Notes: generated from the sequence alone by a model not told the origin. A DNA stretch of 64,000 nucleotides from Candidatus Woesearchaeota archaeon (GCA_964578845.1 CAZOEF010000003.1:74137-138136); one strand, 5' to 3'; positions 1 to 15,397 are shown, counted from the stretch's first letter. Numbers and translations: made by a program.

Positions 1-124
1 CTGCGCTGCTTGATTCTCCGATAGTTAAAGTAGATCCAGAAGGCTCCACAGAAATTGCCGGTTTAACTATAAAAAGTGTTATCACGATTAAGGCAATAAT
101 AGCAGATATTTCCCTAAAGTTCAT
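1..124 (-). CDS. N-terminal fragment of a signal-peptide/TM protein (gene runs off the window start)
   Basis: ATG at 122-124 (minus). MNFREISAIIALIVITLFIVKPAISVEPSGSTLTIGESS has a hydrophobic N-terminus. ATGA-coupled to the upstream RHH mini-ORF. Absent from the ORF track because it is truncated. Confidence 0.4.
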   Translation of the reverse strand, partial: MNFREISAIIALIVITLFIVKPAISVEPSGSTLTIGESSSA

Positions 125-261
125 TTTTTACTCCTCTCAAGATCTTTTGTTATCAATTCTTCTATATAAACAGAAATATCCTGCTCTGCATCTATGCACC
201 TCTTTTTCACTCTTTTCCAAAGATCGCTGTCTATCTTCAGGCTGGTGGTCTTTCTTGTCAT
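121..261 (-). CDS. small ribbon-helix-helix (CopG/Arc/MetJ-like) DNA-binding protein, 46 aa
   Basis: Hand-translated: MTRKTTSLKIDSDLWKRVKKRCIDAEQDISVYIEELITKDLERSKK. It shows a beta-strand (SLKID) plus two-helix pattern. Its stop overlaps the ATG of the next gene (ATGA). It is below the ORF-track size cutoff. Confidence 0.5.
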   Translation of the reverse strand: MTRKTTSLKIDSDLWKRVKKRCIDAEQDISVYIEELITKDLERSKK

Positions 262-319
262 TAGTAGTATAGTATTAATATATTATATAAATCTAACTAT
301 GAATAATACTATACTACTA
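262..319. promoter_or_regulatory. perfect 16-bp inverted repeat directly upstream of the RHH ATG (operator or RNA hairpin)
   Basis: The arms are TAGTAGTATAGTATTA (262-277) and TAATACTATACTACTA (304-319), exact reverse complements with a 26-nt spacer. A minus-strand TTTATATA TATA-like box lies at 331-338. Confidence 0.55.
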
Positions 320-344
320 TAATACCGATCTATATAAAAGAGAT

Positions 345-1199
345 TTACTTCAGGCTTTCAAGAATATTTTTCAATTGGCCGATATCCTTTGTCAATGAAG
401 AGCTCTTGTTTATAGTCTTTAAAGACTCTATATATTTCTCGACTTTATTAGTCAGTCTCTCGACCTCAGATTTGTCAGCAAGATTTGAAAGCCTTGTGTT
501 TATGGATTCTATTTCTTTTGAGTTCTGCTCTAGGTTGACCTTGAATTCCTGAAGATTATCATTAAACATGTCTACATCTTTGTGTTTTTTTCGTAATTCA
601 GAATATATTGTCTCAACTTTATCAGCATCTATATGAATTGCCGCCTGGGTTTTCTTTATCTCTACAAGCTCGCTCTTTACTTCTTCGCTCAGCTTAACCA
701 CTTCCTCAACGCCCCTGAAGAATTCCAGTTTTTTTCGTAATTCCCTTAATTCCTCCATTACCCTGTCCATTATTGCTTCGTTTCCTTCCATATTTGCCTT
801 AAGTGCCTCGAATTTAGCGTCTTCCCTTTGTATTTCAATCATCAGCTTTTCTGGTTGGACTGTCTCAACTAAATCAGCAGCTTTTACAGCTTTGAGCTCA
901 AGCTCCTGGATCGTCCTGTCTCTATCCATTATCATTGCCCTAAGTTCCCCTACTTGTTCCCTGACTCCAGATATATTTTCACTAAGCGATTTTCTGACTT
1001 CTCCAAAAGATTCAACACTTGCTTTTATTCTGTCAATCTCTGTGCTTAATTTAATTACTGCAGAACTTGAAGTAGGATCTATTGGTTCTTTTTTCTCAGG
1101 CTTTTTCTCTTCTGTTGCTTCTCCTTCGGCGCTTTCTTGGGAATCAGCTGGAGGAGTCTCCTCTTCCTCTTTTTTCTTCTTTTTGAACAATTTAAGCAT
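345..1199 (-). CDS. coiled-coil protein with acidic/Lys-rich N-terminus, last gene of the HerA-like operon
   Basis: 284-aa ORF with an ATG start. It has long heptad-like E/K/L-rich stretches and overlaps the upstream ORF by 8 nt. Any FlaC-type resemblance is only an impression. Confidence 0.6.
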   Translation of the reverse strand: MLKLFKKKKKEEEETPPADSQESAEGEATEEKKPEKKEPIDPTSSSAVIKLSTEIDRIKASVESFGEVRKSLSENISGVREQVGELRAMIMDRDRTIQELELKAVKAADLVETVQPEKLMIEIQREDAKFEALKANMEGNEAIMDRVMEELRELRKKLEFFRGVEEVVKLSEEVKSELVEIKKTQAAIHIDADKVETIYSELRKKHKDVDMFNDNLQEFKVNLEQNSKEIESINTRLSNLADKSEVERLTNKVEKYIESLKTINKSSSLTKDIGQLKNILESLK

Positions 1200-1515
1200 C
1201 TAACTCTCTCCTAATGCATTTTATCAGCGCATTTACTTTATTATACTCTTCCATTGTAAAATTATGCTGTAAATGCATTATTTTGCTGGGAAACAAGATC
1301 AGTTTATTCTTGACAAAAAATACGTCAATATTGTCCTCTTCCATGTTTTTAGCTTTTGCAGTCAATTCTGAATGGATTTTTTCCAGATTAGAGATAACTG
1401 AATATTGTGCTGCACGAGGAATATCATCTTTCCCTAATTTCTTAAGCCTTGTATACTTGGCCTTATCTAAATTTTTCCTTGCGATCTTCAGAATTTGTTT
1501 ATGATCAGGATTCAT
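1192..1515 (-). CDS. hypothetical soluble protein (107 aa)
   Basis: ORF with an ATG start, Lys-rich host-like composition and operon position. No family recognised. Confidence 0.5.
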   Translation of the reverse strand: MNPDHKQILKIARKNLDKAKYTRLKKLGKDDIPRAAQYSVISNLEKIHSELTAKAKNMEEDNIDVFFVKNKLILFPSKIMHLQHNFTMEEYNKVNALIKCIRRELDA

Positions 1516-1551
1516 TATTAGTTGAAGCGAATTTCATTTTAATAGTTTTTG

Positions 1552-2139
1552 TCAGTCCCAAAATTTAACCAGGAATGCCAATCCTACTAAGCTTATCAGG
1601 AAGAACATTCCTCCTAGCCATATTGATTGCCCCTCGTTAATCTCTGCAATTGCAAATCCTGTAAAATTATACGAAAAAAAAGCAATTGAGAGAATAAAGC
1701 TCGCGAAAATCATCAGTGAACAGGCTTTCTTAGGAAAAGGATTATATTTCCTCATTTGGCTTTTGACATCATTGATTCTTGAATTGATCTTATGCAGGTT
1801 AAGGCTATCATCTTTTTTCTTGAACATATCATAAGCTATCCTATATGAATCCAGGGCATTCCTCAGATAGGTCCACGCTGTGAATTTGCTATGCTTATGG
1901 TTTATGAGTTTTAACCATGAACCTTCCCAGGCTGATGCAGCCTCCACAAAAATGTGCGGTTTGCTCACTCCTTTTTCGATGAAGAGGTCGCCTAATAGAT
2001 CATAGATTTTTGCCCTGATTTCTTGGCCAGTACTTGGGTAAAAAGATAAATATTTTTCAAGAAAAAGTATTTTTGATTCAGCATTTTCTATTTCATCTAC
2101 TGCCTTTCTCAATTCCCTGAAAGAGAATAATTCTTCCAT
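1552..2139 (-). CDS. helical protein ending in a TM-hairpin module (FTGFAIAE ... FLVKFWD)
   Basis: 195-aa ORF. The C-terminal 55 aa are two hydrophobic helices around an FTGFAI motif, the same module as 2142..2342 and 41929..42117. Confidence 0.55.
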   Translation of the reverse strand: MEELFSFRELRKAVDEIENAESKILFLEKYLSFYPSTGQEIRAKIYDLLGDLFIEKGVSKPHIFVEAASAWEGSWLKLINHKHSKFTAWTYLRNALDSYRIAYDMFKKKDDSLNLHKINSRINDVKSQMRKYNPFPKKACSLMIFASFILSIAFFSYNFTGFAIAEINEGQSIWLGGMFFLISLVGLAFLVKFWD

Positions 2140-2141
2140 TT

Positions 2142-2342
2142 TTACCTGTTCCTAAGTATGAAGAATAGCCCTGCGAGTCCTGAAAGAAAGAATATGAGGG
2201 CGACAAAATTTACTGGCAATATTTTTTGGCCGCTATCCAAAATAGCATTTCCAGTTATCCCGCTTATTGAAAAAGATAATGATATCAGGAATACTACTGC
2301 AACTATTATAGCGACTGCCTTAACTCTCTTTTTATCTTCCAT
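2142..2342 (-). CDS. 66-aa TM-hairpin protein (ITGNAI motif)
   Basis: Its architecture is TM1, then SISGITGNAILDSG, then TM2 ending in RNR. It lies 32 nt downstream of the HerA-like gene and is a paralog of 41929..42117. Confidence 0.55.
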   Translation of the reverse strand: MEDKKRVKAVAIIVAVVFLISLSFSISGITGNAILDSGQKILPVNFVALIFFLSGLAGLFFILRNR

Positions 2343-2374
2343 TAATTACTAAATATTGGCTATTATTTATATAC

Positions 2375-5300
2375 TTATTTCTTTGGGCTTTCTGCAGGCT
2401 CTTTCTTTTTTTCCTCTCCTTTAGAATATTCATCCACAAGCTTGATAATGTCTTCCTTTGTCTTGACTTTCTTCATTTTTCCTCCCAAAGCAGGGTCTAT
2501 TTGCTTTTCTACCCAATCAGCAATCTCATTTTTTTCATCATTGACGTGCATAGCAAACACAGAGTCGTCTAGGCTTGGAAGAACATCCTTCAATTCTTTC
2601 AGGCTCGATATCATCATCCCATTATCAAATGTGATCGCTGCAACAATCTTTGCAGCCTTGTCATCTTTCTTTTCCTCACTCGGCGCTTCCTCCTTTTTTG
2701 CTCCGCCTTTCCATTTGTCCCTTTCCTTCTGTGCTGATGCTAAAGATGCCTCTACAGCAGACTCGTCGATCAATTCTATCTCTTTCTTCTTAGGCTTCTT
2801 TCCAAGTGATTGCCATTGTTTTTCCATTCTAGGCTTTAATCCCTCCAGATAGATATCAACAACAGTAAAATTACCAGTCATCAATTTATCCTTGACTAAT
2901 TTCAATTCCATCTTAAGGTCAAATGTATCTATTTTTTCAGCTTCTAATTGTTCTATCTGGTATTCCAGGTCATCTATTACTTCCCCATATTGATTATATT
3001 TCTCCAGGACTTCATCACTTAATCTTCTTGTACTGTGAAGAATAGGCCTGAAATTGACAAAATAAGGAAGACCTCTATTATACTCGGCGTTCTGCACCAT
3101 TCCAACTCCTACATCTGCTCTTACTAATGATTTCAAAGCCTCTAATCCGTATCGTTCCTTTATCCTGTTCAAGTCAGATTCTTCTGCTACTCTCATCTGT
3201 GCTTCTGTATTGATGTTGGCCTTGATCTCTCCGACGAAGTCTGATAATACCTGAGATACTAACATTACTCCTAAGCCCCATTTTCTGAACTCTCTGCAGG
3301 CTCTTTCAATCTGCAGGAATCCTCTTCCTTTCCCTCCGAATTTAGGAAGCAGTCTGTGAACTTCATCAAATACTAGTAGAGTCTTCAGCCCTGGATGTTC
3401 CTTAGGATCAGAATGGAAAATCTCTGAGATGACTCCGCTGACAAATAGATCAATCTGTCCAGGGTCAAGCTTATTCATGGTGAATATCTGTATCTGGCCT
3501 GGATTCATGTATTTGTTAATATTTATTTTTTGTCGGGGGTTAGTTATCTGCCGTACATTTCCTGGAAAGGCCTGCGCATCTGATGGCTTAAGGCCGAATT
3601 TAGAATAGAACGACAACATTTTCTTGTCCTCGCATTTTCTAAGCATTCCTGACCATTGGGCTGTAGGATCAAAAACAATTATCGCAATGTTTTTCTTCAG
3701 GGCTTCCTCTATGAACACTTGTGCAGCAATACTCTTTCCTCCTCCTGTAGCCCCTGCAATAATTGCGTGGGTAGTAAGCATATCAAGGTCATAAAATGCA
3801 GGGCTATTGCTTTCTGCAATCTTTCCAAGCTTTATTGATCTTGGACCATCTTTTGGCAGCAGCCCTGTGTTCACAGAAAGATGATATCTTTTTTTCCTTT
3901 GCGCATAACTTCTGTATAAAAATAAATTAAAGAGAATAAAGCTTAAAGCGCTAATCAGGACTAATATCAGCCAGACAGGTATTCCAAAAAATGAATATAG
4001 GTAGAATGGATTGGCTATTGTCAAAGGCTCTTGCGCTGTAAGGAACAAATTAAAGAATCTGGCATTTACTGTTAAGAGATAATCCCCTTCAGGAATGTCT
4101 TCAGGCAATATCATTTCCCTTAATAAAGTCAAAGAGTTCATTATCTCAACCTCTTCATCAGGATCCTCGACAAAGGTCTCTCCTTCCTCATTTACCAAGC
4201 TTTTGCTCAATATTATCTTATATCCTTGTTCAACAAGAAGATTTTGCAGATGCAGCCTATATTTTATAGTGGATCCCGGAGAGATCACTTGCCTGAGCAG
4301 GTCAATGTTTACAAATAATGATTCTATAGGCATCCTCCTGTCAACAACCTGCACTGTTACAGGAGTATCCTGTGCTAAATCCCCTGAAATAGTGAAAGTT
4401 CCTTGATAAATCCCTAGTGGCTGAGTTCCATAAATAGTAAGTATGACCTTGCCAACAGAATCAGGCTGGACAGTCAATGAGGTCTTGTCCATTTCTATGA
4501 AATCTTCTAGTTCATCTGTCAGGTCAAAAACTACATTGATAGGAGATGATTTGAAATTATATATTGCGATCTCTTCCTCAATAAAGGTGTTCCTTCTTAC
4601 CTGAACATCTATATTGTCAGTGGATATCCAGTAGTCCTGCCCTGCTTCTTCTGCAACTACCCTTACTTCATCAACTTCCCCGTCGTCATCTCCCTCTTCG
4701 TCAACTCCTGGCCCAGTCGGAAACAGATTTATGCTGCTAAGTTCCATCGTAATGTTATGGCTGATTATTGAGACACTTGAATTTAATTCAAGGAATGCAT
4801 AATAATTGTTATATCCTGGTTTGACTGATAATATAGGGTTCTGCCCAGGTATAACTGTAGCGATTAAAGAGTAGCTTCCGGTTGATCCAGTAACGACAGT
4901 TTCGTTGCCTAACGAAACATTTGCCTCTGAAATAGCATTTCCGGATTCATCCTTAACAAATCCATTGACCTGGACAGTTATGATCTGTTGGTTGTCTGAT
5001 TCCTGCGTCAAAGTAAAATTCTTCTCAATATTAGAGTTAGAAAAGTCCACTGTTACATTAGCTATTCCTGTTCTGTAGCCGTCTTTGCTGGCGAATACAT
5101 TATAAGTGCCGGGCAATACAAGGAAAGACAGGTTATAGAAGCCATTAGTGTCTGTCAAAGCAGCTATTCCTGCAACATTTACACTTGCGTTTTCAATTGC
5201 ATTATTGAGTGAATCCTTAACATATCCTGATAAGCTGGCGTTAACAGAAGAGCCGATTCCTCCGCCAGGGCACTGATCATTAGGATCATTGAAGAAATAG

Positions 5301-6022
5301 TATCTTTGTGTAGTATTAGCTGGAGTAGGCAGCAGCATCTGGAAATTTGCAGTTGTGCCCGGACTGAATCCTTGTTGTATTACTCCCACACTTGCGACAA
5401 AAGCTAATTTTCCTGATATATTCAATGCTCCGACTCTAAAAACATCATTGCTTCCATCAAATTTATAAGTATAAGTAAAAGGTACGTCCTCTACTTCAGT
5501 AGATCCGATAAATATGCTTGTAGTGTTTGTAAAAGTATTGTTCGCGCAATAAGTGGAGCCGCTGCATCCGATAAAATCATCTATGGCGCTTACATCTGCA
5601 GGCTTAACATCATTAAAATCTAATGTTTGGCTGGTAGAAGCAAACACTTCGGCGCCCCCCTGGGCATCTTGTTGGATGCAGTCAAAAAACATGTCTGCCC
5701 TTCTCAGGTTTCCGCTCTCTAAATCCTCAAAAAACTGTTCAGTAACTCCGTCGACAGTCAAAGCAAAGCCATATAATCCTCCCCACACTTCTACAGGAAG
5801 GCTTGCCCTTAGATTTATTTCAGTAAGTTCTCCGCCATGGCCATCAACTGAGCTCGCCCATCCGGTAATGCCTATAAATTTTGCAGCGAATAAAAAAATC
5901 AGCAGCATAAAAGCAATTACTGCAAGAAGGAGGAAGAAATGCCTGTAGAAAAAAGATTTTTTAGCCTTTTTGACCTCTGAATGATAAATCTGTTTTGCAG
6001 TCAACACCCTCTCTTTTTTCAT
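2375..6022 (-). CDS. membrane-spanning HerA/COG0433 (DUF87)-type P-loop ATPase fused to a large beta-sandwich ectodomain
   Basis: 1215 aa. It has an N-terminal TM and CarboxypepD_reg-like segments (PGTYNVFASKDGY; NGFVKDESGNAISEANVSLG). A second TM is IPVWLILVLISALSFILFNLFLY. The ATPase motifs are Walker A THAIIAGATGGGKS, Walker B LLVFDEVHRLLP and REFRKWGLGVMLVSQ. Confidence 0.75.
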   Translation of the reverse strand: MKKERVLTAKQIYHSEVKKAKKSFFYRHFFLLLAVIAFMLLIFLFAAKFIGITGWASSVDGHGGELTEINLRASLPVEVWGGLYGFALTVDGVTEQFFEDLESGNLRRADMFFDCIQQDAQGGAEVFASTSQTLDFNDVKPADVSAIDDFIGCSGSTYCANNTFTNTTSIFIGSTEVEDVPFTYTYKFDGSNDVFRVGALNISGKLAFVASVGVIQQGFSPGTTANFQMLLPTPANTTQRYYFFNDPNDQCPGGGIGSSVNASLSGYVKDSLNNAIENASVNVAGIAALTDTNGFYNLSFLVLPGTYNVFASKDGYRTGIANVTVDFSNSNIEKNFTLTQESDNQQIITVQVNGFVKDESGNAISEANVSLGNETVVTGSTGSYSLIATVIPGQNPILSVKPGYNNYYAFLELNSSVSIISHNITMELSSINLFPTGPGVDEEGDDDGEVDEVRVVAEEAGQDYWISTDNIDVQVRRNTFIEEEIAIYNFKSSPINVVFDLTDELEDFIEMDKTSLTVQPDSVGKVILTIYGTQPLGIYQGTFTISGDLAQDTPVTVQVVDRRMPIESLFVNIDLLRQVISPGSTIKYRLHLQNLLVEQGYKIILSKSLVNEEGETFVEDPDEEVEIMNSLTLLREMILPEDIPEGDYLLTVNARFFNLFLTAQEPLTIANPFYLYSFFGIPVWLILVLISALSFILFNLFLYRSYAQRKKRYHLSVNTGLLPKDGPRSIKLGKIAESNSPAFYDLDMLTTHAIIAGATGGGKSIAAQVFIEEALKKNIAIIVFDPTAQWSGMLRKCEDKKMLSFYSKFGLKPSDAQAFPGNVRQITNPRQKININKYMNPGQIQIFTMNKLDPGQIDLFVSGVISEIFHSDPKEHPGLKTLLVFDEVHRLLPKFGGKGRGFLQIERACREFRKWGLGVMLVSQVLSDFVGEIKANINTEAQMRVAEESDLNRIKERYGLEALKSLVRADVGVGMVQNAEYNRGLPYFVNFRPILHSTRRLSDEVLEKYNQYGEVIDDLEYQIEQLEAEKIDTFDLKMELKLVKDKLMTGNFTVVDIYLEGLKPRMEKQWQSLGKKPKKKEIELIDESAVEASLASAQKERDKWKGGAKKEEAPSEEKKDDKAAKIVAAITFDNGMMISSLKELKDVLPSLDDSVFAMHVNDEKNEIADWVEKQIDPALGGKMKKVKTKEDIIKLVDEYSKGEEKKKEPAESPKK

Positions 6023-6111
6023 ATATACTTATCCATTATCGAATTAATAAAGTTTGAGGGTTAACAAAATATAGCAAGATTTATAAATAAAAATGCCTAA
6101 TAAACTCTATA

Positions 6112-6705
6112 ATGGGTCTCTTTAAAGTTATCAAAAAAAATAAGGTGCCTGATGAGTTGCCAAGCTTGTCAATAAACAGTTCTGCTCCACAGTCTAATTC
6201 ACTAAATATGCCTAAAACAATGGTTTCTCAGCCTGTACAGGCTCAGCCAGCTCAACAAGTGAAAATAGAAGAGTCTAGATACAAGCCCCTTCCAGTCCAT
6301 AAACTAACCATTCCTGAACAAGCTAAAAAAATGGAAGCAGAAGAAGGATTTTTCAAGAACTTGATGCGTGAGCTCACAGAAGAGATCGATACATCAAAAA
6401 TAGATAATTTCTACAAGAGCAATATTCTTTCAGAAGACATCGTTACTCAGATGAGAAATTACTGGGAAAATCAAAAGCCTGAAATGCTTCTAAAGAGCAT
6501 TGGGAATGAGCTCAAGCAGAAGCTGATAGAAAAAACCAACAGGCTGCACGAGCTTGAAAAAGAATGGCAGGAAGCTTACTTCGACCTATTAGCCAAGGAA
6601 GGAAGAATAAGGGATGAAGAGAAAGAGCTTAAGAAGGAGCTTTCAGAACTTCTTGAATTATATGAAAGATCCTTAAGAGAGACAAGATCAAAGAAGAGAA
6701 AATAA
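6112..6705 (+). CDS. hypothetical protein with C-terminal coiled coil
   Basis: 197-aa ORF with a Q/P-rich N-terminal half and an E/K/L-rich C-terminal half. A TATA-like TTTATAAATA lies about 25-33 nt upstream of the ATG. Confidence 0.5.
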   Translation: MGLFKVIKKNKVPDELPSLSINSSAPQSNSLNMPKTMVSQPVQAQPAQQVKIEESRYKPLPVHKLTIPEQAKKMEAEEGFFKNLMRELTEEIDTSKIDNFYKSNILSEDIVTQMRNYWENQKPEMLLKSIGNELKQKLIEKTNRLHELEKEWQEAYFDLLAKEGRIRDEEKELKKELSELLELYERSLRETRSKKRK

Positions 6706-6740
6706 GGAACTTTTATATACTGATTTAATTTTTGTCCTCA

Positions 6741-7079
6741 ATGAAGAGAGGAAAGAGTTCTAAATTACATAAAAGGATTACATATAACTTCTTGCTTATC
6801 GCTATTTTTTCTATATTGATTTTGATGGCATTAGCCTTGCTTGTACAGACAGGAGCAATGCAAAATCCTTGGGTAGAATTGAACAAAAATATTGAGATGA
6901 TAAATTCAACTGATGCGTGCTCGATTATTGCCGGAAAGCTGATCCATACAATAGAGGATGAAGGAAGTTGTGAGAACATCTGCCATTCTGAGTGCGAAAC
7001 AAGGCAAAAAGTCTTCCAAAATTCTGAATTCGTTCAAAATACTGATTCTTGCAATAATTGCAATTGCTACTGCAAATAA
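6741..7079 (+). CDS. single-TM protein with Cys-rich C-terminal domain
   Basis: The ATG at 6741 is preferred over the TTG at 6732. It has a TM helix (FLLIAIFSILILMALALLV) and 10 Cys, ending CNNCNCYCK. Confidence 0.45.
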   Translation: MKRGKSSKLHKRITYNFLLIAIFSILILMALALLVQTGAMQNPWVELNKNIEMINSTDACSIIAGKLIHTIEDEGSCENICHSECETRQKVFQNSEFVQNTDSCNNCNCYCK

Positions 7080-7082
7080 AAT

Positions 7083-7661
7083 ATGGAAATAGAGGATATA
7101 GAAGAGAATTATAAGCAGAAAAAAGAAAGCTTGGAAAAAGAGTTTATAGATAATGTTAAAGCTGGTAAAGGGAATCTTAAGGAGCTTGATGCTAATTATA
7201 GAAAAAAAATACAAAAGGTAAGGGAGACTTATTACAAACAGCAAAAAAGTTTCATTAAACAAAGCAAGCCTATTAAGAAAAAGAAGAGAAAGAAGAAAGA
7301 AGAAAAGAAAGTTTTTTCAGTTAAGCATATAGAAGTCAGGCTGACAAAGATGGAGAGGGCCAGGCTTAGATTGATAGTCTTTGGATTCAGATTTAAGGTA
7401 TTTATCAGAAATGCATTTAGCTATATTTATTATCCTGGTCCTGCTTATATTTTCAAGAAGTTGAAATACATTTTCATAAAATATTTCAGGAAAGGAGTTG
7501 CTATAATTGTTTTATTGATGAGGAAGTTCATCATAATGATGAGATCTTTAGGAAAATGGTTTATATCAGGGCTGAAGAAAATGTTTTCCAAGGCAAGCGC
7601 TATTATGGCAAAAATGTTCAAGAAAAAAGAAAAGCCTGAAAAAACAGATAAGCCTAGTTAA
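7083..7661 (+). CDS. very basic Lys-rich hypothetical protein
   Basis: 192-aa ORF starting 4 nt after the previous gene. It has a KKKKRKKKEEKK tract and an amphipathic C-terminal half. Confidence 0.45.
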   Translation: MEIEDIEENYKQKKESLEKEFIDNVKAGKGNLKELDANYRKKIQKVRETYYKQQKSFIKQSKPIKKKKRKKKEEKKVFSVKHIEVRLTKMERARLRLIVFGFRFKVFIRNAFSYIYYPGPAYIFKKLKYIFIKYFRKGVAIIVLLMRKFIIMMRSLGKWFISGLKKMFSKASAIMAKMFKKKEKPEKTDKPS

Positions 7662-9489
7662 GATCAAAATAAAAATAGATATTTTCTGTGTCAGTTGTTT
7701 GATATTGCCTTAATCTTGCAGGTATTTTTATTTCATAGTCGTAAGTCCCGTAAGCTCCCTGCTTTTGCTTGTTTATCTGTGAGACAAATACTAAATCTTC
7801 TCTGTCATCCTGGCTATATTGGCCGTCAGTATCATCAGAAGAGTCCCAAAGTATTCCTGTGACAAAATTGGAGTTATTTATTGAATTTACTATAGGTATA
7901 TTTAGGACATCATTGTCGTAGATATTGAAATCAAATAAATTGATCGGAGTTGAGCCGTCTGAAGTGAAAACATTGCTGACTGAGTCTTCTAGGTCATCCA
8001 TATTTAATAATAAGTCTATTTCTGAAAAATCATCTAGAGAGTCATCTAAATTACTGTCCTTTCCTATTGCGATCAAAGAGCTCCAGGAGATATCGCTTTC
8101 TGAGTCTGTCACAAATATATTGCCGGATGAAAGTGAATCATTGAACCAGACACTTACATTTGAAAGCCCGAAATTCGATAATAGCAAATCAACATTGACG
8201 TTGCCGTAAAATTCCTGCCACGCACCCACATTTATTTCCTTATTCAGTTTATTATCTGTTTCGTTTTCCTCAACAATTAAATTCTCTATATCTGCCAGGA
8301 TAAATATATTAGATGTGCCTATCTGGGCATTCCATGTGAAATTTAAATTTCCATTTTCTAATCCTTGCAAGTCAAGGGTTTGATTGCTAAGCTGTGTTCC
8401 TCCTAAAGAAGGATCGCCTAAATAAATGCCAGTTATGAAATCTCCGCTTTGCGAGCAGCCATTATTATTGACTATTGCAGATATTGACAGTTGCTGATTT
8501 TCTATAGGCTGATTGCTGCTAAATTCTAAATCCTCTATTTGGATATCAGCATTTTCAGGATATACATTTAATATTTCAGTCTGGCTATTAATATTATTGG
8601 AGAAGTCCTCGGCATAGCAGCTGAATTCCCATTCCCCTAGACTATTTAGGGAGATATCTGCAAAATAAGTATCTCCAATGTTTTGAGCAGTTATGTTTGC
8701 TGAAGTTCCATTTGGAGCAATATAATTCACAAGAACATTTTGCACTCCGGTAAATGCATCACTGGCTGTGCAATTGATCCGGGCAATATTTTCTAGGCCG
8801 CAGACTTGGCTGGTCAAGTTTATTGCTAGGTCTATAGCAGGAAGGGTATTGTCTACATTTAATGTAAAGTTCTGTGATATCTTTGTTATTGAAAGTTCAT
8901 CCATGGCTAAACAGGCCCATTCATAAGTGCCTTCAGTTGCTGTTTGAGTGAAATTTGATTCTGAATGGTTTCCGCTTGCCTGATTAACAGAAACAATAGA
9001 CCAGGAACCATTCCAATCTGCATAAAGGGTAACATTTGCAAGATTGGCATCAGGATCTTCCGCAATGCAGCTAAGCTGGAAAGGACTAGAAACATTTGCA
9101 AAATCTGGAAAATTCAGGGTTATGCTCGGAGGCGAATTCAATGTCAGGTTAGGCATCACATTATTGCTGCCGTTGACAATAAGGCTGGCCTCACTTGTGA
9201 CATATCCATCTCCTGAATCAATCACTTTAGCTCTTAATTGATCCCCTATAGAACAGCCATTGTTCAGCAAAGAACAATCTATTAAGTAAGTATTACTAAT
9301 CAAAGAGTTGCCAAGTCCGATTATATCAGTAACATTATCATTTGTTCCAAAAGCAGGATTCCATAAGACAATTATTTTTCCGTCTGCACTCTGTCCATCC
9401 AATGCATCATTTACTAAACCGGTTATATTAAGCGCAGAAGCTTCGTGGACAAAAATTATTATGATAAGTATTAAAAGAATTCTTTTCAT
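7654..9489 (-). CDS. secreted surface protein: shared N-terminal domain plus Ig/CARDB-like repeats, many N-glycosylation sequons
   Basis: 611 aa with a signal peptide (MKRILLILIIIIFVHEASA). The N-terminal ~115 aa are paralogous to 13454..14674. A CARDB-like segment is present (ISAIVNNNGCSQSGDF...ENETDNKLNKEINV). More than 20 N-x-S/T sequons by eye. Confidence 0.7.
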   Translation of the reverse strand: MKRILLILIIIIFVHEASALNITGLVNDALDGQSADGKIIVLWNPAFGTNDNVTDIIGLGNSLISNTYLIDCSLLNNGCSIGDQLRAKVIDSGDGYVTSEASLIVNGSNNVMPNLTLNSPPSITLNFPDFANVSSPFQLSCIAEDPDANLANVTLYADWNGSWSIVSVNQASGNHSESNFTQTATEGTYEWACLAMDELSITKISQNFTLNVDNTLPAIDLAINLTSQVCGLENIARINCTASDAFTGVQNVLVNYIAPNGTSANITAQNIGDTYFADISLNSLGEWEFSCYAEDFSNNINSQTEILNVYPENADIQIEDLEFSSNQPIENQQLSISAIVNNNGCSQSGDFITGIYLGDPSLGGTQLSNQTLDLQGLENGNLNFTWNAQIGTSNIFILADIENLIVEENETDNKLNKEINVGAWQEFYGNVNVDLLLSNFGLSNVSVWFNDSLSSGNIFVTDSESDISWSSLIAIGKDSNLDDSLDDFSEIDLLLNMDDLEDSVSNVFTSDGSTPINLFDFNIYDNDVLNIPIVNSINNSNFVTGILWDSSDDTDGQYSQDDREDLVFVSQINKQKQGAYGTYDYEIKIPARLRQYQTTDTENIYFYFDLN

Positions 9490-9815
9490 TATGGAACTAA
9501 TAGAGTCAAATTCCTGCTGGCATATATCTCATATTCTCTGCCAGGAATTATCAGGAAATTGCTCCCGACCCCTCCCATTGCTTTCACGAATCCGATTGTT
9601 TCCTGCCTTTGCTCATCAAAATAACTGATAGTGGTTATATCTGGATTTAACAATATAAGGTCACTCACATACAATGTAGCATTTATCTGCAATAAGTTCT
9701 TGCCTTCAGATAAATTAGCTACTTCTCTGCCGTATGCCTTTGTTAAATTAGGGATCATGATTAATGAAGCCAGCACAATTATTGCTATCGCAATGAGTAT
9801 CTTATTTGCCGTCAT
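9489..9815 (-). CDS. small secreted/anchored protein (108 aa)
   Basis: It has an N-terminal hydrophobic signal (ILIAIAIIVLASLIMIP). It overlaps its neighbours by 14 nt and 1 nt, so it is within the operon. Confidence 0.5.
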   Translation of the reverse strand: MTANKILIAIAIIVLASLIMIPNLTKAYGREVANLSEGKNLLQINATLYVSDLILLNPDITTISYFDEQRQETIGFVKAMGGVGSNFLIIPGREYEIYASRNLTLLVP

Positions 9816-12021
9816 TTACCCTCCTGGATAGCTTGCTGTGTTTAGCCTTGAATTTTTCTTTGATTTTTTGTGAGGAAGTTTCAAGCACCTTGTCAATTTC
9901 AAAAAATATTTCCTTAGCCTCCTCTATGCTGGCTTCATTGGCATTATTGAATTTACTCCTTAAATGAGCTTCATGGAGGTCATCATTAAGCTCAATTAAT
10001 AAGGAATATACTTTCTTTTTATATTTCTTTTCCAGTGAGGAATACTCGTCTGACAATGATTGGTATATTTTTTTTGCACTATCTATATCCCCTTCCCTAA
10101 TACTAGACCTTGCACCAGAGATATCATCTAATATCTCGCTTAAGGATCCATTATTTATATCTGAAAATCCCTTTCTGATAAAATAAAAATATATTCCAAA
10201 TCCAAATAATATCATAATTGCCAAAATCAATCCGAAGTATCCTCCTTTGCCAGAATCGACAAATGAGAAATATCCTGTAATAGGGAAGTTCTGCTCTTGG
10301 GGGATGTCTTTGTACAAGAGCAATGTCCTGATATTATCTATATTATTAAGGTCAAAATGCCCATCAACTATGTAAGTTATTTCTTCGGTATCTAAGCTGA
10401 AAGAGATTATCGGATCGTCTTTAATTACTGAATAGCCCGGGTTTTTTATATCCATCTCCCCGATACTGTTAACTATTTCTTTTGGGACAAAATGCACTAT
10501 CGAGAGGTTATTATCTTCCCTTGAATTTAGCTTATTGAATGCCTTAATTAATGATTTTTCCCTCCTGCTTCCATCTAAATATATTATGTCTAAATTATAT
10601 GCATTTACGCTGCTTTCCAGCTCCAGGTTTTCCATGGACTCGATGGATTTCTTTATTCTTTTTTCTGAATCAGTGGTGTCCGGGTTTATCTGCAGGAATA
10701 CCTTTTCTAGTTCTTCAGGGTTTGTCGGTAATGAAGCCTCTTTTTCTGAAACAATCGATATGCTTTCAGGGACTTTCTTCTTTATTGTATTTAATCTAAG
10801 CTCTACAGATTGCAGCTTGCTGTCAAGTTCAGCCCTCGTTAGGCTTTGTTGTTTATATTTTTCAACATCTTTCCTTAGTGAGCTCAATTCTGATTTGACA
10901 CCGGCCAATTCTTTTCCAAATTCCAGCGATTCAATTATGTCTGCCTCAGCACCATCTTTTGAATTGAATGAATTTTCAATGCTCTTCACGTCATCCATGA
11001 CTAAATCCACTCCTGACAATGAATTATCGACTAGGCCTTGAAGATTTATTGATAGTCCTGTTGGCGAAGTAATGCTATTCTCAAACAATGCAGTGGCATA
11101 TGCTTCGACAGAGAGCTCCCCTTCATTGCCCGCCTCATCAACAGCAGAGATTCTATAATAATATGTTTTTCCTTTCTCTACTGAAGTGTCCGAATATGAA
11201 TCATCCTCCCTGCTTACCTCCTTATAGAAATCAGAATATTCCACGTTAGGCGATTCTGATTTATATATCCTATAAAAGTCAATCTCATCATCATCTTCAT
11301 GCCATTCTAGTTCAGTCCTTCCATTAAAGCCTGTAGCATCAAAGTCCAGTATAGTTCTTGGTTTTATAGTATCTACTATAAATATTGAGCCTGAAGTTAT
11401 CTCTGTGCCAGTATTCCCATTGATGTCTTTAGCGCTGAATTTGAATGAGCTAGCAGTTTCACCTGCAGAGTCATCTATGATTAAATATCCATTCCAGTCT
11501 GTTCCAGATCCTGAGAGGGGAATAGGGTCATAACTGATGCCATTGAATGAATACGTTAAACTAGGGGATTGCTGGACAGGCTTTGATGTGATCAGGCTGA
11601 TCTCGAACAAGCCAGCGCCTATTGGAGAATCATCTGAAAGGCTTATCTGGGCAGTTACTGGAGTAATTATATTGAAGGTGATTTCTAGTTTGCTAGAGCT
11701 AGTATCTGTCGAGTTCCTGCAAGCTATGAAATATTTATATGATCCATCATTAAGGTCCGTAAAGCTTTTCTTATGTAATGTCCCAAAATTAAAGTCAAAT
11801 GTTCCTTCCATGCTTTCATATGATGCTCCTGAATTACTGCTATATTTGCAATTAACAATTCTGTCAGTTCTTATCTCCATTGAAACAGATTTATCTAATA
11901 TTATATCTGGGTAGATATAACTTGCCCCTGAACTGGTATCAAAATTATATGAGACTATTGATACAGCCATAACACTCTGGATGCTAAATATCAATAAAGC
12001 AATCAGTATTATTTTCTTCAT
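9802..12021 (-). CDS. type I membrane surface protein with FN3-like domain, coiled coil, TM and cytoplasmic tail
   Basis: 739 aa with a signal peptide. An FN3-like stretch is YRIYKSESPN...GKTYYYRISAVDEAGNEGELS. The TM is GLILAIMILFGFGIYFYFI. It has an ATGA overlap with the upstream gene. Confidence 0.7.
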   Translation of the reverse strand: MKKIILIALLIFSIQSVMAVSIVSYNFDTSSGASYIYPDIILDKSVSMEIRTDRIVNCKYSSNSGASYESMEGTFDFNFGTLHKKSFTDLNDGSYKYFIACRNSTDTSSSKLEITFNIITPVTAQISLSDDSPIGAGLFEISLITSKPVQQSPSLTYSFNGISYDPIPLSGSGTDWNGYLIIDDSAGETASSFKFSAKDINGNTGTEITSGSIFIVDTIKPRTILDFDATGFNGRTELEWHEDDDEIDFYRIYKSESPNVEYSDFYKEVSREDDSYSDTSVEKGKTYYYRISAVDEAGNEGELSVEAYATALFENSITSPTGLSINLQGLVDNSLSGVDLVMDDVKSIENSFNSKDGAEADIIESLEFGKELAGVKSELSSLRKDVEKYKQQSLTRAELDSKLQSVELRLNTIKKKVPESISIVSEKEASLPTNPEELEKVFLQINPDTTDSEKRIKKSIESMENLELESSVNAYNLDIIYLDGSRREKSLIKAFNKLNSREDNNLSIVHFVPKEIVNSIGEMDIKNPGYSVIKDDPIISFSLDTEEITYIVDGHFDLNNIDNIRTLLLYKDIPQEQNFPITGYFSFVDSGKGGYFGLILAIMILFGFGIYFYFIRKGFSDINNGSLSEILDDISGARSSIREGDIDSAKKIYQSLSDEYSSLEKKYKKKVYSLLIELNDDLHEAHLRSKFNNANEASIEEAKEIFFEIDKVLETSSQKIKEKFKAKHSKLSRRVNDGK

Positions 12022-13211
12022 CTTATTCCTCTAAGTTTATCCATGAACTTCCTCCTTTCTTTTCTCACCTTGAAATACATCAGCAGGATCAAAGCAGCCA
12101 CTATCAAATAAGCAAGGATTATCAGGATAGTTCTTAGGCTAATCCCTGTTCCTCTGACATTGATGACTTTGCTGGATTCAAATGTTCTCTTTTTATCATA
12201 GAATATTCTTCCGCTTACAACATATCTTCCGGGTTTTTGTGGTGTGAAGAAAAAGCTGAAGTTAGTGGAACTGTCTATTGGGACACTTATTGTCTCGCTT
12301 TCTAATACTTGTACTATCTTATCACCAAGTTTGATTTCCCCCCTGAATTGGGCATCGACTTCTTTTTCCCCAGTGTTATCGAATAAAGCCAGGATCTGGG
12401 AAGTATCTCCTTCATCCATCCAAACTGGAGCCATAATCTCTCTCAAAACTCCCTGTGCTCTTAGTGCCCCTGGCTCATAGACATCAAGTGTCAAAGTAGA
12501 TGAGTCAAAACAATCAACTGCTGATATCTCTGCCCAATACTGATCTACTTCTAAATCATCAGTAGGGACTTCAAAGCTGATTCTCTCCTGCCTTGTTGGA
12601 AGTATTTCCTTCCCTAAAAACTCAGTGCTTTTTACTATGCTAATCTGCTCTTGGTCCCATAAGTCTACAAGCATCCTCGGCCTTAGCCTTACATTCCCTT
12701 CGTTCAATATATCTGCACCAAAAACAATATCATCTCCCTGCTCAACTGAGGTGGCCCCAAAATTTGTTGCATGGCATTGTATTATTTCATTGTCTACAAT
12801 ATTCACTTCAATTGCCACATCAAGGACTGCAAGGATATTCCCTGTCGCGTGCCCTTGCTGGCCATCATCTCCTATTGAAGTTGTCCTGATCCTAAAGAAT
12901 CCTGTGTAGTTCCCATTAGGAATATCAGAAGGGGGTTCTACAGCCACTACAGGTCTCCAAGGATCATCTCTTGAGATGATAGATGAATTGTCTTCAAATG
13001 TGATCCATTCAGCAATATTCCCTAAGGGCTCGATACTGGCTTCCACAGGATCATCGCCGCTATAGCTTATGGTGAAAACTCTCTCAGCATATCCCCCGCG
13101 CAGTACTTGGTCATATTTGTAATTACTTGGGCTGACTCCTACAATGCCTTGCGCCGTGGCAGCTGACGCTAAAATTATCGCTGCAATCACTAAAATAAAT
13201 AATTTACTCAT
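12018..13211 (-). CDS. surface protein with signal peptide and C-terminal TM anchor plus basic tail (CARDB/NEW3-like beta domains)
   Basis: 397 aa. The signal peptide is MSKLFILVIAAIILASAATAQG and the C-terminal anchor is ILIILAYLIVAALILLMYFKVRKERRK. It is coupled by ATGA overlaps on both sides. Confidence 0.7.
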   Translation of the reverse strand: MSKLFILVIAAIILASAATAQGIVGVSPSNYKYDQVLRGGYAERVFTISYSGDDPVEASIEPLGNIAEWITFEDNSSIISRDDPWRPVVAVEPPSDIPNGNYTGFFRIRTTSIGDDGQQGHATGNILAVLDVAIEVNIVDNEIIQCHATNFGATSVEQGDDIVFGADILNEGNVRLRPRMLVDLWDQEQISIVKSTEFLGKEILPTRQERISFEVPTDDLEVDQYWAEISAVDCFDSSTLTLDVYEPGALRAQGVLREIMAPVWMDEGDTSQILALFDNTGEKEVDAQFRGEIKLGDKIVQVLESETISVPIDSSTNFSFFFTPQKPGRYVVSGRIFYDKKRTFESSKVINVRGTGISLRTILIILAYLIVAALILLMYFKVRKERRKFMDKLRGIR

Positions 13212-13381
13212 TTTTTCTCCTTGTCCAAGATCCAGTTTATGACGATATTCCTTATTATCTCTGCTTTTGTGTTTCCCAGAATTCCTGTATACTTCTCGAT
13301 TAAGGATAATTGGTCCTCATTGAAAGTTACAGGAATTTTTTCTTTTCTCTTTTTAGTTACTTTTTGGTTACCTTTAGGCAT
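13208..13381 (-). CDS. small ribbon-helix-helix-like DNA-binding protein, 57 aa
   Basis: Hand-translated: MPKGNQKVTKKRKEKIPVTFNEDQLSLIEKYTGILGNTKAEIIRNIVINWILDKEKK. Its stop overlaps the ATG of 12018..13211 (ATGA). It is below the ORF-track cutoff. The track instead shows a TTG-started ORF on the opposite strand. Confidence 0.5.
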   Translation of the reverse strand: MPKGNQKVTKKRKEKIPVTFNEDQLSLIEKYTGILGNTKAEIIRNIVINWILDKEKK

Positions 13382-13407
13382 TTTTCTATATATTTTTAAT
13401 CTCTTTT

Positions 13408-13429
13408 TTAGATACTTATTAGATACTTT
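13408..13429. promoter_or_regulatory. tandem 11-bp direct repeat upstream of RHH mini-gene (candidate operator)
   Basis: TTAGATACTTA (13408-13418) is followed immediately by TTAGATACTTT (13419-13429), 27-48 nt upstream of the ATG at 13381. Confidence 0.45.
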
Positions 13430-13453
13430 TAAGGTATTTAAGCCTTTTTAGAA

Positions 13454-14674
13454 TCAGTTTTCAGGACCTATGGCTGCCCCAAATATTATATTCCCTTCGC
13501 ATGAGCCAGCCACTCCGCTAGGAACATAGATTCTCCAATAGGTTTTGCCAGTATCATCAAGGAAAGCTGCTAAGTCATTTGACCTATGGCCAAGGTTAAA
13601 GCTCCTGATAGTTGATATGCTGCTTAAGTTCCTGTAACTTGACTCGAACATTTGAAGGTCCATAAATCCAGGATTACTGGCAGTCAGGTTATATCTCTGA
13701 TAATTTATAGGAATATTCTTGGTCAATCCTTCTGTGCAATTCATGGCAAGGTTATCTCCTGGCGTAACAGCATATCCGCTCAGGCTAAGGTTTATTTCTA
13801 CATTTCCCATATTGGTGACATTTATGATAGATTCTTCAGATACTTCAAGGGCATTAACTTGTCCAAAATCCACTGTATCCTCAAGTTGTATTGCAAGAAG
13901 AGGGTTGACCATGCTGATATTCGAGCCTTGATTTGAGATATTTAGATGATCATTAACGAGCATTGTGCAATTCCAGATATTTGAATCTGCATAATACTCC
14001 AGGTCAAAGCTGCAAGTAGCATAAGATTCTAGCGGGCCTCCGAATCCTGCATCTAAGAAGCAACTGGAGTTTGAGTAATGATTATTATTGTCGTCGGGGT
14101 CGCTGTAACTAAACCCTGCGTCAAATACTCTCGCGCTTGAGCTTGTGATGTCATCTTCTCCATCATAGTCAAAGATTACCCCCTCACAAGTCACTTGTGT
14201 AGTGGTTGCAGGAGTCAGGTCTATTTCTCCGGCAGGGTTTATCAGTCCGTCATCTAACAATATCAAATTGAACACAGGAGGGGAGTTAAGTGTTAAATTA
14301 GGCGCTACATCAAAACCAGTGCCGCTAACTGTTACATTTACTTCGCTAGTGATGTATCTATCACCTTCATCTAAAACTTTTATGCTTAATTTATTCCCGA
14401 CAAAGCATCCGTTATTTAGCTCCTCGCAATCAACAAGGTAAATATTATCAGTTTCTGAATTTCCGTTAGGGCCGATTATACCAGTAACATTATCATCTTC
14501 CCCAAAGGAAGGGTTCCACAGTACTATACTCCTGTCATTAGCAATTGTTCCATCCATTGCATCATTCACCCTTCCAACTATAAAATGGGCTGCACTGGCG
14601 ACAGGAATAAAGCTGGAAAATATTAATGCAATGAATAATATCAAGAAAAATTTGTAGATCATTACGATATTCAT
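13454..14674 (-). CDS. secreted surface protein sharing the N-terminal domain of 7654..9489
   Basis: 406 aa with a signal peptide ending VASA. The segment GRVNDAMDG...IVLWNPSFGEDDNVTGIIG...LVDCEELNNGC...PNLTLNSPP aligns by eye with 7654..9489 at roughly half identical positions. Confidence 0.7.
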   Translation of the reverse strand: MNIVMIYKFFLILFIALIFSSFIPVASAAHFIVGRVNDAMDGTIANDRSIVLWNPSFGEDDNVTGIIGPNGNSETDNIYLVDCEELNNGCFVGNKLSIKVLDEGDRYITSEVNVTVSGTGFDVAPNLTLNSPPVFNLILLDDGLINPAGEIDLTPATTTQVTCEGVIFDYDGEDDITSSSARVFDAGFSYSDPDDNNNHYSNSSCFLDAGFGGPLESYATCSFDLEYYADSNIWNCTMLVNDHLNISNQGSNISMVNPLLAIQLEDTVDFGQVNALEVSEESIINVTNMGNVEINLSLSGYAVTPGDNLAMNCTEGLTKNIPINYQRYNLTASNPGFMDLQMFESSYRNLSSISTIRSFNLGHRSNDLAAFLDDTGKTYWRIYVPSGVAGSCEGNIIFGAAIGPEN

Positions 14675-15324: not shown

Positions 15325-15397
15325 TAGCCCTACCCGGATTCGAACCGGGGCTTCGGGCTCCAAAAGCCCGCGTCCTTGACCACTAGACTATAGGGCT
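15325..15397 (-). tRNA. tRNA-Gln: tRNA-Gln (anticodon UUG)
   Basis: Minus-strand sequence AGCCCTATAGTCTAGTGGTCAAGGACGCGGGCTTTTGGAGCCCGAAGCCCCGGTTCGAATCCGGGTAGGGCT folds as a cloverleaf. It has a 7-bp acceptor stem, anticodon loop TTTTGGA and T-loop TTCGAAT. No CCA is encoded. Confidence 0.9.

Follow-up and report, generated by a model that had tools for sequence, protein, structure and literature searches.

The 64,000-nucleotide stretch of Candidatus Woesearchaeota archaeon DNA analysed here (GCA_964578845.1 CAZOEF010000003.1:74137-138136; the whole of it is called the window, and positions count from its first letter) encodes, at 2375..6022 on the minus strand, a 1215-aa protein that joins an ATPase core of the HerA clade, FtsK-HerA superfamily, with intact catalytic motifs to a large domain that likely lies outside the cell. 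The initial annotation of the sequence gave no characterised counterpart for this fusion. The fusion is not singular, being the standard architecture of a large family: scanning one genome for each GTDB species turned up ATPase-encoding genes at more than 583 loci (the best 80 of these loci were listed), and DPANN names stand on almost all loci among the matches listed. The conserved core of the system consists of the ATPase, a helical protein of the W107 type (107 aa in the window) and a coiled-coil protein, W284 (284 aa). As to function, we tentatively favor a surface-coupled polymer translocase with DNA as its favored substrate, a reading that may hold but that we would not call probable.

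DPANN archaea account for a large share of archaeal diversity, and attachment to a host is the presumed lifestyle of most of them; we know of essentially no described machinery for this attachment or for their uptake of material. The family is a concrete and testable candidate for host-interface machinery in the few cultivable DPANN-host systems, and the breadth and strong conservation of this uncharacterised motor would surprise a specialist. Between proteins that bear the names of different DPANN lineages, the motor is 45-78% identical. Full-text literature searches returned no description of the ATPase family, of W284 or of DUF5752, and the statement that no characterised system carries such a fusion stands as far as the searchable literature goes. 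The FtsK-HerA architecture class, W284, the W107 module, the DUF5752-like adaptor domain and the tip-domain family described below all appear to be new to annotation.

Architecture of the fusion protein

From the N-terminus, the protein is made of a tail, a first transmembrane (TM) segment, the ectodomain, a second TM segment, the HerA-clade ATPase, a three-helix bundle and a DUF5752-like C-terminal domain. A full-length query retrieved 28 homologs of the same architecture (43-62% identity), and those with names are Pacearchaeota or Nanoarchaeota. The parts are located as follows, with the evidence in parentheses:

2375..6022, minus strand: 1215-aa fusion protein (open reading frame (ORF), Pfam, 28 homologs, hydropathy and charge)
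5867..6022, minus strand: basic N-terminal tail and TM1 signal-anchor, ending GITGWA (hydropathy, charge)
5273..5860, minus strand: distal 'tip' domain, residues ~55-250 (hhalign; no Pfam family)
4703..5245, minus strand: two CarboxypepD_reg beta-sandwiches, residues ~260-440, sequon-rich (Pfam, AlphaFold2 (AF2), PDB matches)
3983..4642, minus strand: two membrane-proximal Ig-like sandwiches, residues ~461-680 (AF2, alignment of the paralog at locus L003)
3908..3982, minus strand: TM2 (IPVWLILVLISALSFILFNLFLY) and juxtamembrane motif (hydropathy, clade alignment)
3023..3865, minus strand: HerA-clade RecA-like ATPase core (Pfam, PDB profile, Foldseek, motifs)
2798..3022, minus strand: three-helix bundle, residues ~1001-1075 (AF2, clade identity)
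2423..2632, minus strand: small C-terminal domain, residues ~1131-1200, DUF5752-like (phmmer, Pfam; low model confidence)

The assignment of the motor to the HerA class, already made in the initial annotation, is borne out by Pfam, by a profile comparison with the PDB and by Foldseek, all of which point to HerA. Pfam detects the DUF87/HerA central domain at residues 730-835 (E 1.4e-13, above cutoff), within the region of residues ~700-1010 where it had been predicted, together with HerA_C (E 2.5e-7), and the family sequence profile matches exclusively HerA in the PDB (4d2i, E 2e-13). An AF2 model of residues 706-1215, computed from a 40-sequence alignment, has a mean predicted local distance difference test (pLDDT) score of 84.5, with values above 90 across the first ~400 residues. 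The best Foldseek match of this model is Sulfolobus HerA (4d2i, E 4e-11), followed by SIR2-HerA and HerA-NurA and then by FtsK motors and TcpA; the top matches 4d2i, 8wiv, 9x1m and 8xau span E 4e-11 to 3e-10. The HerA/DUF87-style motifs that had been quoted are present. The core carries Walker A GATGGGKS, DPTAQW, Walker B LLVFDEVH, REFRKWG and SQ, in keeping with the signature of the clade (Walker A GxxGxGK[ST], Walker B hhhhDE with a conserved His in E-x-H, and a conserved Arg/Lys with an SQ sensor segment), and the catalytic motifs are retained across the family. Re-calling ORFs on 88 fetched loci (numbered with L below) gave 79 complete ATPase copies; Walker A and the RE[FY]RK.G motif with the SQ sensor are found in all 79, and [DE]E[VI]HR in 77.

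Beyond the RecA-like core, the AF2 model places a three-helix bundle (model residues 298-368, pLDDT ~96), one more helix and a disordered linker rich in K and E, and it resolves the C-terminal domain poorly. Of the coiled coil and small C-terminal domain noted earlier, the small domain stands, and the coiled coil is replaced by bundle, helix and linker. An MIT-like or TPR-like identity of the bundle, by analogy with Vps4/ESCRT-III and with W284 (whose relatives start MGLF...KKK) in the place of ESCRT-III, was discarded: a profile of 27 bundles compared with the PDB and Pfam gave coiled-coil noise and no MIT. Mean identity within the clade is 72% for the ATPase and 75% for the bundle, versus 40-45% for the ectodomain modules and 21% for the poorly conserved TM1 region, a contrast in the sequences that marks a constrained motor joined to what is predicted to be a fast-evolving, exposed part.

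Hydropathy shows two main hydrophobic segments, at residues ~23-59 and ~672-705, and a marginal window at 197-215 within the ectodomain. The N-terminal tail is basic (9 K/R among 27 aa), as is the stretch RSYAQRKKRYH directly C-terminal to TM2, and the 634-residue segment between the two TM helices is acidic (85 D/E versus 29 K/R). When the positive-inside rule is applied to this charge pattern together with the hydropathy, the ectodomain likely lies outside and the ATPase inside, in agreement with the two-TM layout first proposed. N-x-S/T sequons for N-glycosylation follow the same division, as 13 of the 14 fall between the TM segments where shuffling expects 7.0 +/- 2.4 (P = 0.015), so that the description of a sequon-rich ectodomain holds as well. 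At TM2, the juxtamembrane residues Y676, G680, P682 and W684 are invariant in the clade.

The AF2 model of the ectodomain (pLDDT 71) consists of one distal domain followed by four beta-sandwiches, of which the middle two are CarboxypepD_reg and the membrane-proximal two have other Ig-like folds. The CarboxypepD_reg assignment was expected for residues ~250-450 and was recovered there by Pfam as two stretches (E 1.5e-17), with which the AF2 strands and PDB matches to a carboxypeptidase D domain agree. The membrane-proximal pair is modelled at pLDDT 75-88 and has a weak CFAP74/ASH-type Ig match. The account of ~600 aa of CarboxypepD_reg-like sequence is therefore correct for two modules (~260-440), and roughly three of the five modules, namely the tip and the two Ig-like domains, are different. 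A more specific fold for the ectodomain as a whole was sought with Foldseek against the PDB and BFVD, and only generic arrays were returned (tandem Ig, macroglobulin, RbmA, S-layer SbsB and phage tail fibres).

The tip domain, modelled at moderate or low confidence, is homologous to free secreted proteins of ~260 aa in related operons (hhalign 98.7%, E 2e-16). These proteins have signal-peptide-like N-termini, and one or two of them follow W284 in many of the loci assigned to class A below. The domain occurs in 184 cluster representatives (E<=1e-3), DPANN surface proteins of 230-1970 aa in which it is always N-terminal (~30-250). In other proteins it often precedes CarboxypepD_reg repeats, and the number of repeats that trail it, from 1 to 8, suggests a stalk of adjustable length.

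A query with the ATPase module alone drew over 279 proteins (E <= 1e-3), of which the 120 listed are 43-78% identical, with labels that include Woese-, Pace-, Nano-, Micr-, Alti- and Aenigmarchaeota. All 79 complete copies have at least ~190 residues ahead of the ATPase, so that none begins with it, and most have a hydrophobic helix N-terminally or just ahead of the ATPase, at a threshold that does not resolve every TM2. By size, the copies fall into three groups:

Class A: ~1120-1435 aa, ATPase starting at ~665; includes the window protein
Class C: ~1150-1580 aa, ATPase starting at ~580
Class B (short): ~700-840 aa, ATPase starting at ~240

The P.W motif at TM2 is specific to class A (23 of the 79 complete members). 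Genomes hold 1-3 copies, and long and short copies occur together on several contigs. The short paralog at L003 (801 aa) aligns from window residue 461 onward and so keeps only the two membrane-proximal Ig-like domains. Class B operons open with an ATPase-less protein of ~630 aa (L020 3285..5186, L040 3269..5167, L032 3276..5183), which has a signal, Ig-like domains (HYDIN/ASH-type match), a TM segment and a short coiled-coil tail and resembles the ectodomain half of the fusion, an arrangement that suggests mixed external assemblies.

Apparently soluble ATPases of 340-550 aa proved on re-calling to be mostly fragments or mis-called starts of TM-anchored long proteins; two exceptions apparently without TM are L006_6001_7254 (417 aa) and L008_6001_7572 (523 aa). 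On the 1.2-Mb contig of L006, a giant cut copy of more than 1612 aa (1..4839), with ectodomain, ATPase and an NPCBM_assoc-type domain, is followed by two small genes, the 417-aa copy that looks TM-less (6001..7254) and a 451-aa W284 homolog. On the Micrarchaeota contig of L007, what is annotated as a 'DUF853 family protein' of 366 aa corresponds to the 3' end of one ORF of 2019 aa (1042..7101), from which we conclude that public gene calls badly truncate the family. Typical class C operons are also found on contigs that bear the name 'uncultured Methanosarcinales archaeon' (L066, L068, L070, L071, L074, L076 and L082), and a few ATPase-module proteins are labelled Patescibacteria, Leptospiraceae or Nitrospirae; we suspect binning or labelling errors behind the Methanosarcinales and bacterial names.

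Conserved partners and genomic context

Gene coordinates and spacings were taken from a six-frame ORF listing over the window, which reproduced the five minus-strand ORFs of the initial annotation with their lengths, their successive gaps of 32, 2 and 36 nt and their final 8-nt overlap. The genes that accompany the ATPase are:

2142..2342, minus strand: 66-aa two-TM hairpin protein (ORF, hydropathy)
1552..2139, minus strand: 195-aa helical protein with a C-terminal TM hairpin (ORF, hydropathy)
1192..1515, minus strand: W107, 107-aa soluble helical protein (ORF, phmmer, hhalign)
345..1199, minus strand: W284, 284-aa coiled-coil protein (ORF, locus comparison)
1..124, minus strand: start of a signal-peptide protein that runs off the window edge (MNFREISAIIALIVITLFIVKPAISVEPSGS)
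6112..7661, plus strand: divergent triad W197, W115 and W192, co-conserved with the long class A ATPase

The proposal of a five-gene operon survives in part, as the 107-aa and 284-aa genes are co-conserved with the ATPase and the 66-aa and 195-aa hairpin genes rarely are. At the same time, the conserved cluster reaches past 345-6022 and takes in the triad and the secreted tip-domain paralogs. The ORF at 1..124 is probably one such paralog, since its N-terminus resembles L001_12076_12882 and L002_11840_12616 and its position after W284 matches theirs; the fragment is too short for homology comparison.

W284 is the most constant partner of the ATPase. It follows the ATPase in seven of the first eight loci, including the Micrarchaeota contig. 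Where >= 2.5 kb of sequence beyond the ATPase is available, W284 lies at most 3 kb downstream in 14 of 18 loci of class A, 17 of 18 of class C and 4 of 30 of class B, that is in 31 of 36 long-form loci. The protein has a basic N-terminus (MLKLFKKKKK) and no TM segment, and its family comprises at least 361 homologs, the named ones from Pace-, Woese- and Nanoarchaeia, none with a real annotation and with 30-69% identity across lineages. Pfam and PDB searches with W284 gave no family beyond coiled-coil noise, the generic matches being DUF1664, DUF4795, SMC/Rad50, MCP and the CLEC4M neck, and profile searches detected no homology to Snf7, PspA or ESCRT-III. Short basic N-termini, next to acidic or low-complexity linkers, recur among W284 relatives and W197 (MGLFKVIKKNK, MGLLNNFFKKKG, MGFLDSIKKKISKK and MLKLFKKKKK; 345..1199 on the minus strand, 6112..6705 on the plus strand, L006 7606..8961 and L007 7554..8414) and may be membrane-binding amphipathic starts.

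W107 directly follows the ATPase in class A, with phmmer matches in L001 and L002, and its module is found downstream in 15 of 18 class A and 17 of 18 class C loci. In class C it takes the form of a helical module in longer partner proteins at the same position (hhalign 97.4%, E 1.4e-11). These class C partners start with one or two copies of the C-terminal domain of the ATPase, and phmmer with that domain finds matches in more than 30 non-ATPase neighbours (E 1e-15 to 1e-5). Against the Pfam DUF5752 model (PF19027, cutoff 23 bits), copies in partner proteins score 31 and 24.7 bits and the window domain 12.9; the phmmer matches support homology between the DUF5752-like ATPase C-terminus and these partner domains. 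The helical bundle of the ATPase is also marginally similar to the W107 family (hhalign probability 50%, E 1.6e-4).

The three triad genes are all present in 23-25 loci next to class A, either divergent or co-directional. W197 is soluble, with an MGLFK N-terminus and a C-terminal coiled coil; W115 has an N-terminal TM segment and a Cys-rich ectodomain; and W192 has a charged N-terminal half and a hydrophobic C-terminal stretch. Comparing W197, W192, W115, W284 and the C-terminal domain by hhalign revealed no hidden relationship (probability <2%).

The TM-hairpin genes are lineage-specific and stand outside the conserved core. Relatives of the 66-aa and 195-aa genes occur in only 4-5 other loci and are differently arranged, and in three other loci relatives of the 195-aa protein (~190-210 aa) lie divergently upstream of a class B gene. 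The hairpin that ends the 195-aa protein is homologous to the 66-aa protein, just as the initial annotation had it in describing a protein ending in the same hairpin, and TATA-like A/T boxes lie upstream of both genes in the window. A third copy (62-66 aa; MGKKLNVPLGILVVLLL...SSFTGYIVAED...) at 41929..42117 on the minus strand sits 43 nt upstream of a 760-aa T2SSE (PilB/FlaI-type) ATPase (39603..41885, minus strand; Pfam E 4e-12), and hairpin proteins therefore flank two unrelated membrane-associated ATPases in the window. A motif [SG][IFL]TG[YFWN][AVI] is shared by TM1 (GITGWA), the three hairpin proteins and a surface protein of 1024 aa, each time behind a hydrophobic helix (sites at 5867..5900, 2142..2342 and 1552..1700, all on the minus strand, and at the L016 C-terminus). 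The motif might serve in processing or sorting; among the 79 family ATPases, just 10 have it within their first 90 residues.

Related loci adjoin genes for RNA polymerase subunit A, ribosomal proteins L1 and L10, FEN1 and a CDC48-type ATPase. No phage or IMG/VR match was found, plasmid matches are remote and partial (31% identity over 46% of the query), and no integrase or relaxase was seen near the operon. Because of these core-gene neighbours and database results, and with no effector found, the system looks chromosomal and stably inherited, neither a mobile element nor a known defence system. We accordingly regard an anti-phage HerA module or a mobile-element ATPase for conjugation or viral packaging as extremely unlikely. 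Speaking for such a role, PADLOC HerA models match the ATPase core (best 57.7 bits), and HerA-like ATPases are common in the 'dark-matter' islands of archaea (PMC4158269). Yet PADLOC on seven neighbours was negative or gave coiled-coil noise, with no effector (SIR2, DUF4297 or nuclease); the synteny beside core genes is stable; and the plasmid, phage, IMG/VR and PADLOC comparisons all led us to set this origin aside.

Known relatives and possible mechanisms

The family can be placed by comparison with five groups of ring ATPases and with FtsH. HerA proteins are ring ATPases that thread DNA, and HerA of the HerA-NurA, SIR2-HerA and DUF4297-HerA systems has the same RecA-like core and DUF87 motifs as the fusion. 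Canonical HerA, however, begins with a HAS barrel, whereas in the fusion only ~50 residues separate TM2 (ending at ~705) from Walker A (757); this segment has no Pfam HAS-barrel match and is modelled by AF2 as a short beta-hairpin. Unlike HerA, the fusion also has a membrane anchor, a huge ectodomain, the C-terminal three-helix bundle and the DUF5752-like domain. NurA, Mre11 and Rad50 were not found among eight neighbouring products or in related loci beyond coiled-coil noise, and the NCBIfam HerA equivalog models score 21-28 bits against cutoffs of 800-970.

The crenarchaeal Ced system, by which contacting cells import DNA, requires CedB and CedD, TM-anchored ATPases of the HerA clade (PMC11868833). 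They resemble the fusion in clade and in their N-terminal TM anchor, and CedD is the top NCBIfam model, although its score of 34.4 bits lies far below the cutoff of 600. In contrast to Ced, the fusion has no VirB4-like N-terminal domain, no CedA (VirB6-like), CedA1 or CedA2 (VirB2-like) genes accompany it, and the phyla are different; the Ced proteins, for their part, are without a large ectodomain. No CedA-type polytopic protein is conserved in the operons; the two-TM hairpins, which are not co-conserved, were not compared with CedA1.

Type IV coupling proteins (T4CPs; VirD4, TrwB, TraD and TcpA) have the same topology, with the N-terminus inside, two TM segments, an external loop and a cytoplasmic hexameric ATPase of the FtsK-HerA superfamily. 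Their external loop is only tens of residues long, against ~630 aa in the fusion. Neither T4SS-DNA_transf nor an all-alpha domain is matched above threshold, TrwB_AAD_bind falling below its Pfam cutoff (14.8 versus 20.5 bits, E 0.013), with only faint matches in relatives, and unlike T4CPs the fusion is not plasmid-borne and has no relaxase, VirB4 or other type IV secretion system (T4SS) genes beside it. The protein falls outside canonical HerA, CedB/CedD, the T4CPs, FtsK/SpoIIIE and the anti-phage HerA systems (SIR2-HerA, DUF4297-HerA and Nezha); in topology it resembles a coupling protein or FtsH with the external loop enlarged to a stalk of 200-2000 aa.

One possible mechanism, which we favor tentatively, would be a surface-coupled translocase. 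The cytoplasmic ATPase would form a hexameric ring beneath the membrane (a hexamer is assumed because the solved HerA and FtsK motors are, to our knowledge, rings), and 6-12 TM helices together with six stalks would form an outer collar. The variable stalk, as a contact or spacing device, and its tip would touch another surface, probably the host cell or its envelope, and the ATP-driven ring would thread a polymer at the contact site. DNA would be the favored polymer because of the HerA-clade ancestry and activity and the precedent of TM-anchored CedB/CedD. W284 and W107 may serve as a scaffold or an adaptor that docks onto the bundle and the DUF5752-like domain. The family is built as a surface-coupled motor would be designed, with a variable external contact part, an invariant engine and two invariant partners, and the initial idea of contact-coupled translocation or uptake is compatible with all findings; so are the rival explanations.

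Several points weigh against translocation. The neighbourhood contains no conserved polytopic channel (CedA/VirB6-like), pilin, nuclease, relaxase or DNA-binding partner, and it is doubtful that six or twelve TM helices alone could serve as a DNA conduit. TM1 is poorly conserved and might be cleaved off as a signal, leaving each protomer with a single TM helix. The coiled-coil and helical partners fit a scaffold or substrate-protein role at least equally well, and the symbiotic lifestyle of the organism is inferred from taxonomy only.

We consider unlikely a bolder form of the translocase, a DPANN-specific host-contact translocon in which a HerA hexamer would lie under a glycosylated six-stalk collar with a host-recognising tip, bringing DNA or another host polymer in or sending material out. 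If true, it would be the long-sought molecular conduit behind the host dependence of DPANN archaea and a third independent coupling of an FtsK-HerA motor to intercellular transfer, beside the Ced/T4SS-like and type IV pilus/Com systems. Should the transport idea prove wrong, a motor architecture and partner families that appear to be unannotated would remain.

The missing channel partner speaks for a second hypothesis, that of an inside-out mechanical device or assembly platform, which we rate as somewhat unlikely. Here the ring would work on W284 or on its own bundle, and force passed through TM2 would assemble, extend, retract or otherwise remodel a surface structure made of the stalk and the secreted tip paralogs, with no polymer crossing the membrane. 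The comparison is with the topology of FtsH, FtsEX or MacB, or with an ArlX-type scaffold around the archaellum ATPase. FtsH has the same order of TM1, ectodomain, TM2 and hexameric ATPase; it is nevertheless an AAA+ protease of an unrelated ATPase class, with an external domain of ~70 aa. The constant partners are soluble helical and coiled-coil proteins in which no DNA-binding signature was found, the secreted tip paralogs have their own signal-peptide-like N-termini and so would not depend on this ATPase for export, and the short-paralog operons encode an ATPase-less copy of ectodomain and TM. Against these observations, rings of the HerA/FtsK clade are, as far as known, polymer translocases and not mechanotransducers, the bundle showed no similarity to MIT or other known adaptor domains, and the moderately modelled tip domain has no demonstrated filament-type features.

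The small helical proteins of the operon also recall type VII secretion systems (T7SS), where a two-TM FtsK-like ATPase (EssC/EccC), a long extracellular stalk (EsaA) and small helical proteins likewise occur together. By this analogy, which we hold to be decidedly unlikely, the ATPase would export the ~107-aa protein, the coiled-coil protein or both in folded form, much as EssC/EccC exports WXG100/LXG proteins, with the stalk in the role of EsaA. A two-TM ATPase of the FtsK-HerA superfamily does share one operon with small helical proteins that lack signal peptides, and the marginal similarity between the partner helical module and the ATPase bundle would fit; weak, sub-threshold WXG100/T7SS matches on W284 are most likely coiled-coil noise. 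However, T7SS keeps ATPase and stalk as separate proteins, and EssC has three ATPase domains and FHA domains where the fusion has a single ATPase domain. No homology to the T7SS ATPase was detected beyond the P-loop core, WXG or YxxxD/E signals were not noted, EssB, EssA and EccB/D/E analogues are missing, and the degree of conservation of W284 across lineages is more typical of a structural component than of an effector.

FtsK/SpoIIIE and Streptomyces TraB are likewise ring-shaped DNA pumps anchored in the membrane, and they work where cells or septa meet. A corresponding role in segregation or division, with a membrane HerA clearing DNA from the division plane and W284 as division-site scaffold, seems very unlikely to us. 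Archaea reportedly lack FtsK, and Iyer et al. are said to have proposed HerA as its analogue in 2004; the very high conservation, the low copy number, the housekeeping neighbours and the FtsK motors among the fold matches would suit such a role. But FtsK, which spans the membrane with at least four TM helices, has alpha/beta/gamma domains and a winged helix-turn-helix (wHTH) and lacks an ectodomain, whereas the fusion gives no Ftsk_gamma match, shows no FtsK gamma/wHTH domain and scores below the Pfam FtsK_SpoIIIE cutoff (21.2 versus 24 bits). A variable, adhesin-like ectodomain of 200-2000 aa and secreted tip paralogs have no place in that process, and division is universal while the family appears largely restricted to DPANN-labelled genomes.

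Other features of the window

Two further minus-strand genes lie close to the cluster:

121..261, minus strand: 46-aa ORF, ribbon-helix-helix-like by eye only; its stop overlaps the next start (ATGA)
7654..9489, minus strand: 611-aa CARDB-domain surface protein (Pfam CARDB 1.4e-9)

The 46-aa ORF has one relative, of 55 aa, near a short-paralog operon in L030. The 611-aa protein is 50% identical to the equivalent gene of L001, the closest locus, which is syntenic, and it belongs to a run of four large genes (611, 739, 397 and 406 aa) upstream of the triad at 7654..14674 on the minus strand. Apart from CARDB in the 611-aa protein, Pfam finds weak fn3 in the 739-aa protein and no match in the 397-aa and 406-aa proteins. 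The conserved block may be bigger than the triad and the operon, because relatives of the 739-aa and 611-aa proteins keep their relative position in L002 and L001. Farther along, a 299-aa ORF with a LAGLIDADG domain (15388..16287, minus strand; Pfam E 8e-13) overlaps by ~10 nt the 5' end of a tRNA-Gln(TTG) gene on the same strand (15323..15398, minus strand).

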